From Escherichia coli (GTDB lineage: Bacteria > Pseudomonadota > Gammaproteobacteria > Enterobacterales > Enterobacteriaceae), in NCBI RefSeq assembly GCF_044324785.1, contig NZ_CP172127.1: 64,000 nucleotides of DNA; one strand, 5' to 3'. Every line of letters starts with the position of its first letter. The stretch's first letter is position 1. The notes below the pieces were generated by a model. That model did not search any database. It was not told where the DNA came from and saw only the letters and a list, made by a program, of their open reading frames with translations. A program made the translations under genes and the position numbers. This document shows positions 4,590 to 48,028 of the stretch, piece by piece.

Positions 4590-4658
4590 TCTGCCGAAAA
4601 AATTCCCCTCTGCATGATGCAGAGGGGGTGTGAACGACCAGTGATTCACGGAGACGTT

Positions 4659-16117: not shown

Positions 16118-16145
16118 TTCTCCTGATTTCCTCAATTGAAATGAA

Positions 16146-16172
16146 CCCGATGATCTGCACATCGGGTTTTTT
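16146..16172 (+). terminator. Rho-independent terminator after cheW
   Basis: Stem cccgatg / catcggg followed by TTTTTT. Confidence 0.75.
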
Positions 16173-16203
16173 ATTTCAATTTAGCGGTAGGTGGCATCAG
16201 CAA

Positions 16204-16230
16204 TAAAGTTTCCCCCCTCCTTGCCGATAA
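16204..16230 (+). promoter_or_regulatory. Sigma28 (FliA) promoter of the tar-tap-cheRBYZ operon: TAAAGTTT-N11-GCCGATAA
   Basis: Exact consensus match, about 30 bp upstream of the tar start. Confidence 0.8.
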
Positions 16231-28945: not shown

Positions 28946-29701
<756 letters not shown>

Positions 29702-29747
29702 TTTTTACCGTTGCATCATGTCGCCCAATATGATGCTTGCTCGTACC

Positions 29748-29781
29748 AGGCCCCTGCAATTTCAACAGGGGCCTTTTTTTA
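29748..29781 (+). terminator. Rho-independent terminator after cutC
   Basis: Stem aggcccctg / caggggcct followed by TTTTTTT. Confidence 0.8.
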
Positions 29782-33692: not shown

Positions 33693-33791
33693 GCCTGATG
33701 CGCTATGCTTATAAGGCCTACATAGTCCCTGCAATATATTGAATTAGCAAGATTTTGTAGGCCGGATAAGGCGTTCACGCCGCATCCGGCA
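33693..33791. repeat. REP/BIME element between convergent torZ and cmoB
   Basis: gtaggccggataaggcgttcacgccgcatccggca is a near-consensus REP; a second degenerate unit lies upstream. Confidence 0.7.
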
Positions 33792-44022: not shown

Positions 44023-44808
44023 TTAGCTGGCTTGCTTTTTCATCATACTGATAATAAATAACAGTGCCGCACATAGCACCACCGACGGACCCGCCGGCGT
44101 ATCGTAAAATGCGGAAAAGGTTAAACCGCCAGTTACTGCCACCATTCCCACCAAAACAGCGACACCGGCCATCTGTTCCGGCGTGCGGGCAAAGCGACGC
44201 GCAGTAGCTGCAGGAATAATTAGCAACGAAGTAATAATCAACGCGCCGACAAATTTCATCGCTACACCAATCGTCAATGCCGTCACCAGCATCAACAACA
44301 ATTTCACGCGCTGTAATTTCACTCCATCAACAAACGCCAGATCCGGGCTAATCGTCATCGACAGCAAATTGCGCCATTGCCAGAACAAAATCGCCACCAC
44401 GATGACCACGCCAATTGCAATAGAGATGAGATCTTCTGGCGTCACTGCCAGCAAATCACCGAACAGGTAAGCCATCAAATCAACACGAATATTAGACATC
44501 AGACTAACGACAACCAGGCCCAGCGACAGGGCACTGTGCGCCATAATCCCTAATAACGTGTCGATCGCCAGCTGTGGACGCTTCTCCAGCCATACCAGAC
44601 CGCCCGCCAGCAGCAGCGTAACTGCAATCACCGCATAGAATGGATTCACGTCCAGCAACAAACCAAACGCGACGCCAAGTAATGAGGCATGAGCCAGCGT
44701 ATCACCGAAATAAGACATACGACGCCAGACCACAAACGAACCCAGCGGACCCGCGGCACAGGCGAGCATGATCCCGGCTAACCAACCGGGAAATAATAAT
44801 TCAATCAT
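44023..44808 (-). CDS. znuB: Zinc ABC transporter permease ZnuB
   Basis: ORF track 261 aa. Confidence 0.95.
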
Positions 44809-45560
44809 GAGCGATCATTTCCCCGACGCAAAACAATTCGTCCCTGTAAATCGTGACGATGATTATGATGATGGCGATAGATACCCAGTTGTTCAGCACC
44901 ACGAGGACCAAACATAGAAATAAACTCCGGATGCAGGGAAACAACTTCCGGTGTACCGGAACAACAAATGTGGTGATTCAGGCAAAGCACTTCATCGGTT
45001 TTTGCCATTACCAGATGCAGATCGTGAGAGACCATTAAAACGCCACAATCCAGTTCGCGACGCAACTGGTCAATAAGGTCATATAACGCCACCTGACCAT
45101 TCACATCCACGCCCTGAGTGGGTTCATCCAGCACTAATAATTGCGGTCGATTTAACAATGCTCGCGCTAACAATACACGCTGTGTTTCGCCACCCGAGAG
45201 CTTTTGCATCGGTGCGTTAATCAGATGCCCGGCCTGGACACGTTTCAGTGCAGGCAAAATATCTTCTTTATGTGTGCCAGGGCGTAAGCGTAAAAAACGG
45301 TTTACGGTCAGTGGCAACGTGGTGTCGAGATACAGCTTCTGCGGTACATAGCCGATGCGCAGTTTTCCGTTGCGCTTGATAACCCCTTCATCGGGTGTTA
45401 CCAGCCCGAGCACTACCCGTACCAGTGTCGACTTACCTGCGCCATTTGGCCCAAGTAAAGTCAAAATTTTTCCAGGTTTAAGTTCCAGCGACACATCAGA
45501 GAGGACGCGGCGTTGGCCAAAAGAAACCGAGACATTTTCCAGGGAAACCAGACTTGTCAT
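44805..45560 (-). CDS. znuC: Zinc ABC transporter ATP-binding protein ZnuC
   Basis: ORF track 251 aa; Walker [10 protein letters not shown]. Confidence 0.95.
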
Positions 45561-45586
45561 GTTAATTTTAGTCTTGCAGTAGTCAT

Positions 45587-45609
45587 GAAATGTTATAATA
45601 TCACACTTC
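45587..45609. promoter_or_regulatory. Zur box in the znuCB/znuA divergent promoter region
   Basis: gaaatgttataatatcacacttc resembles the GAAATGTTATA-N-TATAACATTTC Zur operator consensus. Confidence 0.65.
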
Positions 45610-45638
45610 TCATATTCATTACGATGATTGGTCGCATT

Positions 45639-46571
45639 ATGTTACATAAAAAAACGCTTCTTTTCGCAGCATTATCCGCCGCTCTCTGGGGCGGTGCAAC
45701 ACAGGCCGCAGATGCTGCCGTTGTCGCTTCGCTTAAACCCGTTGGGTTCATCGCTTCTGCCATTGCTGATGGGGTAACAGAAACGGAGGTTTTACTACCT
45801 GACGGCGCTTCAGAACATGATTATTCACTGCGTCCATCAGATGTAAAACGCTTACAGAACGCGGACTTAGTCGTTTGGGTTGGCCCGGAGATGGAAGCGT
45901 TCATGCAAAAACCGGTAAGTAAATTACCTGAAGCGAAACAGGTAACGATTGCGCAGCTAGAGAATGTGAAACCGCTGCTGATGAAAAGTATTCACGGCGA
46001 TGATGATGATCACGACCACGCGGAAAAAAGTGACGAAGATCACCATCACGGCGATTTCAACATGCATCTTTGGCTTTCCCCAGAGATAGCGCGGGCTACA
46101 GCGGTTGCAATCCATGGAAAATTAGTGGAACTTATGCCGCAAAGTCGAGCCAAACTTGACGCCAACCTGAAGGATTTTGAGGCACAATTAGCCTCAACCG
46201 AAAAGCAGGTTGGTAACGAGCTCGCGCCGCTCAAGGGGAAAGGTTATTTCGTTTTTCACGATGCTTACGGCTATTTCGAAAAACAGTTCGGACTGACACC
46301 GCTTGGTCATTTTACCGTTAACCCTGAGATTCAACCTGGCGCGCAGCGTTTACATGAAATAAGAACACAGTTGGTTGAGCAAAAAGCAACCTGCGTTTTT
46401 GCTGAGCCACAGTTCAGGCCAGCGGTCGTTGAGAGCGTCGCACGAGGGACATCCGTTCGTATGGGAACGTTGGATCCCCTGGGGACGAATATCAAACTGG
46501 GTAAAACAAGCTATTCAGAATTCCTGAATCAATTAGCCAACCAGTATGCGAGCTGCCTGAAAGGAGATTAA
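45639..46571 (+). CDS. znuA: Zinc ABC transporter periplasmic binding protein ZnuA (His-rich loop)
   Basis: ORF track 45513..46571; start [10 protein letters not shown] at 45639 (310 aa); His/Asp-rich segment [21 protein letters not shown]. Confidence 0.93.
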
Positions 46572-46586
46572 TGAGGAAGTGATTAC

Positions 46587-47909
46587 GTGCAACAGATAGC
46601 CCGCTCTGTCGCCCTGGCGTTTAATAATTTACCGCGACCACACCGCGTTATGTTGGGGTCGCTCACCGTTCTTACTCTGGCCGTCGCTGTCTGGCGGCCC
46701 TATGTTTATCACCGCGATGCCACGCCAATTGTCAAAACCATTGAGCTGGAACAGAACGAAATTCGTTCGCTCTTACCTGAAGCCAGTGAGCCGATTGATC
46801 AAGCTGCACAAGAAGATGAAGCCATTCCCCAGGATGAACTGGATGACAAAATCGCCGGTGAAGCGGGCGTGCATGAATATGTTGTTTCCACTGGCGATAC
46901 GCTAAGCAGCATTCTCAATCAGTATGGTATTGATATGGGTGATATCACCCAACTGGCTGCTGCCGACAAAGAATTGCGTAACCTGAAAATCGGTCAACAA
47001 CTCTCCTGGACATTAACCGCGGACGGCGAACTGCAGCGCCTCACTTGGGAAGTGTCTCGTCGTGAAACCCGAACCTATGACCGTACTGCCGCTAACGGTT
47101 TTAAAATGACCAGCGAAATGCAGCAAGGAGAGTGGGTTAACAATCTGCTGAAAGGTACCGTCGGGGGAAGCTTTGTTGCCAGCGCCAGAAACGCCGGTTT
47201 AACCAGCGCTGAAGTGAGCGCAGTGATTAAAGCCATGCAGTGGCAAATGGATTTCCGCAAACTGAAAAAAGGCGATGAATTTGCGGTGTTAATGTCACGA
47301 GAAATGCTTGATGGTAAACGTGAGCAAAGCCAGCTGCTGGGCGTACGTTTGCGTTCAGAAGGTAAAGATTATTACGCAATCCGCGCTGAAGATGGCAAAT
47401 TCTACGATCGTAACGGTACTGGTCTGGCGAAAGGATTCTTGCGATTCCCGACGGCGAAACAGTTCCGTATCTCGTCTAACTTTAACCCGCGTCGTACTAA
47501 TCCGGTGACTGGTCGTGTTGCGCCACACAGAGGTGTTGATTTCGCCATGCCACAGGGTACGCCGGTGCTTTCAGTGGGTGACGGTGAAGTGGTGGTTGCC
47601 AAACGCAGTGGCGCAGCAGGTTATTATGTGGCTATTCGTCATGGTCGCAGCTACACCACGCGTTATATGCACTTGCGCAAGATCCTGGTGAAACCGGGAC
47701 AGAAGGTGAAACGTGGCGACCGTATCGCGCTTTCCGGTAATACCGGACGTTCAACCGGGCCGCATCTGCACTATGAAGTATGGATAAACCAGCAGGCCGT
47801 AAACCCGCTGACGGCAAAACTGCCGCGTACCGAAGGGCTGACCGGCTCCGATCGTCGCGAATTCCTGGCGCAGGCCAAAGAGATTGTGCCGCAGCTACGG
47901 TTTGATTAA
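46587..47909 (+). CDS. mepM: Murein DD-endopeptidase MepM (LysM + M23 peptidase)
   Basis: ORF track 440 aa. Confidence 0.93.
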
Positions 47910-47924
47910 TTAACATCCATTCGC

Positions 47925-47956
47925 AGCCGGTACGCAGTCAGTACCGGCTTTTTTTA
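47925..47956 (+). terminator. Rho-independent terminator after mepM
   Basis: Stem agccggtac / gtaccggct followed by TTTTTTT. Confidence 0.8.
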
Positions 47957-48028
47957 TTTGGTGCGGGGCAAGTTGCGCCGCTACACTATCACCAGATTGA
48001 TTTTTGCCTTATCCGAAACTGGAAAAGC

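Follow-up and report, generated by a model that had tools for sequence, protein, structure and literature searches.

The Zur operator between znuCB and znuA in Escherichia coli and the conserved core it shares with two divergent promoter motifs

Gene content and transcription units around the znuC/znuA spacer

The stretch of Escherichia coli DNA analysed here (the window, 64,000 nucleotides) carries the zinc ABC transporter genes in a divergent arrangement. The local gene order is ruvA and ruvB (+), znuB and znuC (−), and znuA, mepM, and lpxM (+), according to the list of open reading frames and the E. coli annotation. Gene names were taken from 100%-identical E. coli RefSeq records and from NCBIfam equivalog models. 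The 601 bases around the site have a match in 5425 of the 5426 E. coli genomes and are 100% identical in many complete ones, and the annotation of the identical genomes places znuC and znuA at the site. In the same collection (ecoli_genomes), one genome holds two copies of the znuC/znuA junction and 1 of the 5427 matches is carried by a plasmid, an apparent case of unusual duplication or mobilisation of this locus. The features of the locus are as follows:

44023..44808, − strand: znuB, zinc ABC transporter permease (NCBIfam NF007089, 534.3 bits)
44805..45560, − strand: znuC, zinc ABC transporter ATPase (NCBIfam NF007090, 535.6 bits)
45561..45638, no strand: znuC/znuA intergenic region, bidirectional promoter region (sequence and open reading frame list)
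45639..46571, + strand: znuA, periplasmic zinc-binding protein (NCBIfam NF007091, 525.6 bits)
46587..47909, + strand: mepM (yebA), M23 murein endopeptidase (NCBIfam NF008652, 891.6 bits)
47925..47959, + strand: intrinsic-terminator-like hairpin and T-run after mepM (9-bp stem with 6 G-C pairs, then TTTTTTTATTT)

A first-pass annotation, made from the sequence alone, had described a 78-bp divergent spacer between znuCB and znuA, and this is correct. The spacer measures exactly 78 bp (31% G+C) and is bounded by the znuC start at 45560 on the − strand, where the ATG reads 'cat' at 45558..45560, and by the znuA ATG at 45639, from which the protein begins MLHKKTLLF. The start of znuB and the stop of znuC overlap by 4 bp. 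Another in-frame ATG is located five codons 5′ of the annotated znuA start (at 45624..45638) and is kept in most Enterobacteriaceae, with ATT or AAC in its place in Kluyvera and Pseudocitrobacter loci. It is probably leader sequence and not an alternative znuA start.

The gap between znuA and mepM is 15 bp and no terminator-like site was found in it, while the terminator-like hairpin follows mepM. In E. coli, mepM is reported to be co-transcribed with znuA and to respond to zinc starvation by induction (PMC7705223, PMC6381278). The rightward transcript probably runs through mepM to the terminator at 47925..47959, and the position of this hairpin fits a transcription unit that comprises znuA and mepM but not lpxM. 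Because of the short terminator-free gap, the hairpin after mepM, and the reported co-transcription, the operator described below probably also controls this M23 cell-wall endopeptidase.

Elsewhere in the window, three RNA families scored above the Rfam gathering score, namely MicL sRNA (29473..29780, + strand, 368 bits), C0465 RNA (16137..16214, − strand, 97.7 bits), and ES036/CssrF sRNA (33714..33755, − strand, 47.7 bits). No tRNA genes were found in the window.

Motif evidence for a Zur box in the middle of the spacer

The middle of the spacer is occupied by a 23-bp pseudo-palindrome centred at 45598, and the midpoint of the spacer (45599.5) is 1.5 bp away. Two overlapping features were delimited at this position by motif comparison:

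45587..45609, no strand: Zur box GAAATGTTATAATATCACACTTC, an 11-N-11 pseudo-palindrome of 23 bp (consensus, arm pairing, and matrix score)
45586..45605, no strand: exact match to the structure-derived Zur motif TRWNAYRWTATAWYRTNWCA (0 mismatches, both strands)

The gamma-proteobacterial Zur consensus, as published in PMC4219657 and PMC2706843, is GAAATGTTATA-N-TATAACATTTC. The box has 2 mismatches to this consensus (GAAATGTTATANTATAACATTTC), and thus agrees at 20 of the 22 specified positions. When up to 3 mismatches were permitted, 45587..45609 was the sole site in the 64-kb window and none of 100 shuffles produced a match. The 20-mer TRWNAYRWTATAWYRTNWCA, the structure-derived E. coli Zur motif that PMC6103462 quotes from Gilston et al., has no other occurrence in the window even when 1 mismatch is allowed (shuffle average, 0.03). 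The palindromic Zur box proposed in the first-pass annotation is therefore borne out by its arm pairing (9 of 11 arm positions, with A45598 as the centre, by scripted dyad scoring), its 2 consensus mismatches, and its uniqueness in the window. The same annotation had spoken of a single palindromic box, which holds as a description of the sequence but not functionally, where the site consists of two overlapping dyads bound by a dimer of dimers.

A symmetric weight matrix was built only from the ykgM, zinT, and pliG operators (E. coli K-12 promoters), with the znu site left out. This position weight matrix scan, the check proposed along with the first reading, was positive and gave 25.4 bits at 45587..45609, in a test that is only partly independent since the training boxes had been located by their best match to the same Zur consensus. 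The maximum over 100 block-shuffled windows was 19.4 bits and the three training sites themselves scored 28-30 bits. The next best score in the window was 11.5 bits and corresponds to a shifted reading of the same znu box, so that this matrix found no second Zur-like site in the spacer.

What makes the box significant is its match to the Zur motif. Symmetry to this degree is not rare by itself, being reached by seventeen 23-mers of the window, and palindromy was set aside as a criterion. The most symmetric 23-mer of the window is CCCCTCTGCATGATGCAGAGGGG at 4605..4627, with perfectly complementary arms that might form a terminator stem or belong to a REP-like element. A repeat search of the region reported only a 9-nt central palindrome because the arms of the Zur box are imperfect. 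The 18-bp pattern of RNNNY dyads (RxxxYRxxRYxxYRxxxY) fits at 45590..45607, and it was set aside as evidence for being too degenerate, with 255 matches in the window.

Any palindrome could in principle fold in a transcript, and both leaders would begin with parts of the box, which raises the alternative that the dyad acts as RNA in the form of a leader hairpin, an attenuator, or a small RNA. We consider this extremely improbable. The region has no Rfam match even at E ≤ 1, neither the two strands nor the two leaders fold more stably than shuffled sequences (z from −0.55 to +1.06), no terminator-like site was found in a scan of 45400..45800, and variation in the outer arms across species follows no compensatory pattern. 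Membership in a cis-regulatory RNA or sRNA class was rejected, given the lack of both an Rfam match and an unusual fold.

Another A/T-rich-dyad regulator could in principle own the site, either Fur (iron), as the boxes of this repressor family look alike, or the MerR-type ZntR as the main regulator. A partial ZntR-like sequence is reported to overlap the Zur boxes, and apo-ZntR speeds the release of Zur from the znu operator (PMC11618457). However, the spacer comes no closer to the 19-bp Fur consensus GATAATGATAATCATTATC than 7 mismatches in 19 positions, which is no improvement on the rest of the window and excludes a Fur box at the sequence level. The full ZntR dyad, of the long type that occupies the −35/−10 spacer in the zntA promoter, is mismatched at 13 of 22 positions, a chance-level result. 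A ZntR operator of this kind was thus rejected. In addition, ZntR alone does not bind znu operator DNA (PMC11618457). ZntR is at most a modulator of Zur and not an alternative regulator, and assignment of the site to either protein instead of Zur seems to us very far-fetched.

A conserved core carrying both Zur dyads and two putative −10 elements

One genome per species was scanned with ZnuA, which yielded 80 Enterobacteriaceae loci with a ZnuA identity of 75-99%, including Escherichia, Citrobacter, Salmonella, Enterobacter, Klebsiella, Kluyvera, Cedecea, and Buttiauxella. In an alignment of 170 columns, their 75 distinct spacers showed almost no gaps. Four features emerge from this alignment and from direct motif searches:

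45590..45605, no strand: invariant 16-bp core ATGTTATAATATCACA, with both Zur dyads and both −10 elements (alignment)
45591..45599, + strand: extended −10 TGTTATAAT, putative znuA promoter (direct motif search)
45595..45603, − strand: extended −10 TGATATTAT, putative znuCB promoter (direct motif search)
45574..45579, + strand: TTGCA(G), candidate −35 of znuA with ambiguous spacing (conservation)

The 16-mer core is present verbatim in 79 of the 80 loci. It forms the longest invariant run in the alignment, exceeding any in the adjoining coding starts, and keeps a constant distance of 33 bp to the znuA ATG throughout the 75 sequences, among which the length of the spacer ranges from 77 to 79 bp. 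Mean conservation of the spacer outside the core is 81%. The outer bases of the Zur box (45587..45589 and 45606..45609) have a mean conservation of only 73%, and because these 3 to 4 bases on each side are so poorly conserved, the classical 23-bp definition of the Zur box overstates the constrained part, as judged from the alignment. Within the species, 5094 of the 5426 E. coli genomes carry the 37 bp surrounding the box without a single difference. C45602 breaks the palindrome, yet it is invariant across species.

Two loci of this set deserve separate mention. The lone core variant, in Enterobacter sp. kpr-6 (L078:1452-1467), has T for the central A (45598, N in the consensus), a change that turns TATAAT into TATATT. 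A record labelled Chryseobacterium sp. 18061 (CACSKA010000003.1, L047) has an enterobacterial znuA locus with 83% ZnuA identity and an identical Zur core, and its spacer is that of 'Citrobacter sp. 18056' (L025), from the same project, except for one base. Its label is likely the result of mislabelling or contamination.

The core contains a perfect extended −10 element on the + strand, where TATAAT (45594..45599) is preceded by TG at 45591..45592. Sites of the form TGNTATAAT occur only 3 times in the window, and one of them is at 45591..45599. The overlap between the Zur box and a TATAAT-like hexamer noted in the first-pass annotation is confirmed, with TATAAT lying inside the box. That reading was right about the + strand −10 but missed an extended −10 on the − strand of the same core. 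The two hexamers have 5 bp in common on opposite strands, and C45602 provides the G of the − strand TG motif. A generic sigma-70 −35/−10 scan of 45400..45800 found no promoter, because both hexamers lack a canonical −35 at an upstream distance of 16-18 bp. The spacing of the candidate TTGCA is 14 bp if the hexamer is TATAAT and 16 bp if it is TAATAT, with TTG and A 100% conserved and C 95% conserved among the 75 spacers. The promoter assignments are based on the extended −10 motifs and on published figures, including the Fig. 1B legend of PMC4219657, which describes an extended −10 RNA polymerase site drawn inside the znu operator, and from these we infer the exact hexamers and start sites.

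The near coincidence of the core (45590..45605) with the two extended −10 motifs (45591..45599 and 45595..45603) could mean that it is conserved only for two overlapping −10 elements and that its likeness to a Zur box is incidental, with no repressor site present. The conserved asymmetric C45602, which serves the TG of the − strand and not the palindrome, would fit such a promoter-only explanation. The probability of this explanation is, in our estimate, minimal. With the matrix derived from three unrelated promoters under Zur control, the site far outscores the rest of the window, the invariance reaches past the −10 motifs to 45590 and to 45604..45605, and Zur binding and a co-crystal structure have been published for znu operator DNA (PMC4219657).

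Outside the core, three islands are 93-100% conserved among the 75 spacers while their neighbours vary, namely TTGCA (45574..45578), ACGAT (45621..45625), and GCATT (45634..45638). Each may belong to a −35 element, to a leader or ribosome-binding site, or to a second site of protein contact. If TTGCA and ACGAT were extra operator sites, for a second and weaker Zur contact or for another factor, Zur would not be the sole input at this spacer, and the single box of the first-pass annotation would be an incomplete description but not a wrong one. A second Zur-protected region that has no Zur box is known from Yersinia pestis (PMC2706843), and SoxS and c-di-GMP influence znu expression (PMC12818246, PMC7705223). 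However, the islands sit at the positions expected for −35, leader, or ribosome-binding sequence, which is a simpler account of their conservation. The footprint in E. coli is one region of ∼30 bp (PMC4219657), the effect of SoxS is reported to be indirect and without binding (PMC12818246), and the second-best matrix score in the spacer is only the shifted reading of the same box. Additional inputs through the islands are unneeded, and we regard the proposal as unlikely.

Divergent repression and comparison with known Zur operators

Taken together, the site at 45587..45609 is almost certainly the Zur operator of the E. coli znu locus, in a model with divergent repression of znuA and znuCB. The first-pass claim of a Zur operator common to both promoters is supported, on sequence grounds, by the consensus, the structure-derived motif, the matrix, the flanking genes, and the footprint across species. 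Its placement for repression of both transcripts likewise finds support, with both −10 motifs within the core and repression published (PMC4219657, PMC2611976). Sequence, motif matches, uniqueness, gene context, and conservation were computed here, while binding, stoichiometry, zinc dependence, and repression are drawn from published work on the same DNA; the 64-kb window contains no zur gene.

The znu operator is textbook biology and already known in detail. DNase I footprinting of Zur on the operator protects ∼30 bp, and electrophoretic mobility shift assays indicate that two Zur dimers bind highly cooperatively with no one-dimer intermediate (PMC4219657). In the 2.5-Å crystal structure, four Zur monomers, (Zur2)2, occupy a 31-bp znuABC operator duplex, and the two dimers lie on opposite faces of the DNA joined by Asp49-Arg52 salt bridges (PMC4219657). 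This structure is PDB 4MTD, according to PMC6103462. Run-off transcription of znuC in vitro revealed zinc-dependent repression at sub-femtomolar free zinc, as described in PMC2611976 and PMC4219657.

In the best-supported mechanism, two zinc-loaded Zur dimers bind the two overlapping dyads cooperatively when zinc is sufficient in the cytosol, and cover ∼30 bp in the middle of the spacer from opposite faces of the DNA. The 16-bp core would hold both −10 elements, TGTTATAAT for rightward transcription of znuA(-mepM) and TGATATTAT for leftward transcription of znuCB. Bound Zur is thus predicted to exclude RNA polymerase sterically from both divergent promoters at once, and the two would be blocked together because the same core carries both −10 elements. 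When zinc falls, Zur would leave and both transcripts would be made.

The locus, the flanking genes, and the operator are the same as in the E. coli K-12 znuA/znuCB system (Patzer & Hantke 2000; Outten & O'Halloran 2001; Gilston et al. 2014). The operator is without difference from that of K-12; the strain of the window is not necessarily K-12, and the 601 bp around the site are 100% identical to several clinical isolates. Yersinia pestis likewise has divergent znuA and znuCB genes, a short spacer (73 bp versus 78 bp here), and one Zur box over the −10 elements with repression in both directions (PMC2706843). According to the mapped start sites in Y. pestis, each of the two −10 elements is overlapped by the Zur site (PMC2706843). 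The second protected region without a box has been reported for Y. pestis but not for E. coli (PMC2706843). The same box in a 78-bp spacer is found in Erwinia (PMC7705223).

Within E. coli, the operators of ykgM-ykgO (L31p-L36p), zinT, and pliG share the TGTTAT...ATAACA core and the RNNNY dyads with znu, but each of them controls a single promoter, whereas znu serves a divergent pair. Where these three operators have TATAACA in the right arm, znu has TATCACA, a conserved difference. The affinity of Zur for znu is reported to be among the weakest of the four E. coli operators (PMC4219657). Fur boxes are comparable in that they belong to the same repressor family and are A/T-rich dyads over promoters with two dimers on opposite DNA faces, but they differ in the consensus, which is unmatched at znu (7 of 19 positions mismatched). 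A contact of Zur Tyr45 with the central TATA is reported to be specific to Zur relative to Fur (PMC4219657).

A further hypothesis, offered tentatively and with more doubt than confidence, is that the core including C45602 is frozen because three functions are superimposed on it, namely two Zur dyads and two extended −10 elements on opposite strands. Polymerase would then occupy one promoter at a time, and the znuA:znuCB ratio would be set by promoter competition together with Zur. TTGCA (45574..45578) and ACGAT (45621..45625) might tune this competition or form a second weak Zur or ZntR contact.

The znu operator is among the best-characterised metalloregulatory operators, having been used for showing femtomolar zinc sensing and for the first protein-DNA crystal structure of the Fur family, and its recognition here serves as a positive control and not as a discovery. 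Two modest additions come from the comparison across species and the motif searches. The 16-bp core carries extended −10 motifs for both directions, and the evolutionarily constrained unit is this asymmetric core and not the 23-bp palindrome. The size of the core is that expected if promoter function on two strands constrains the sequence together with Zur binding.
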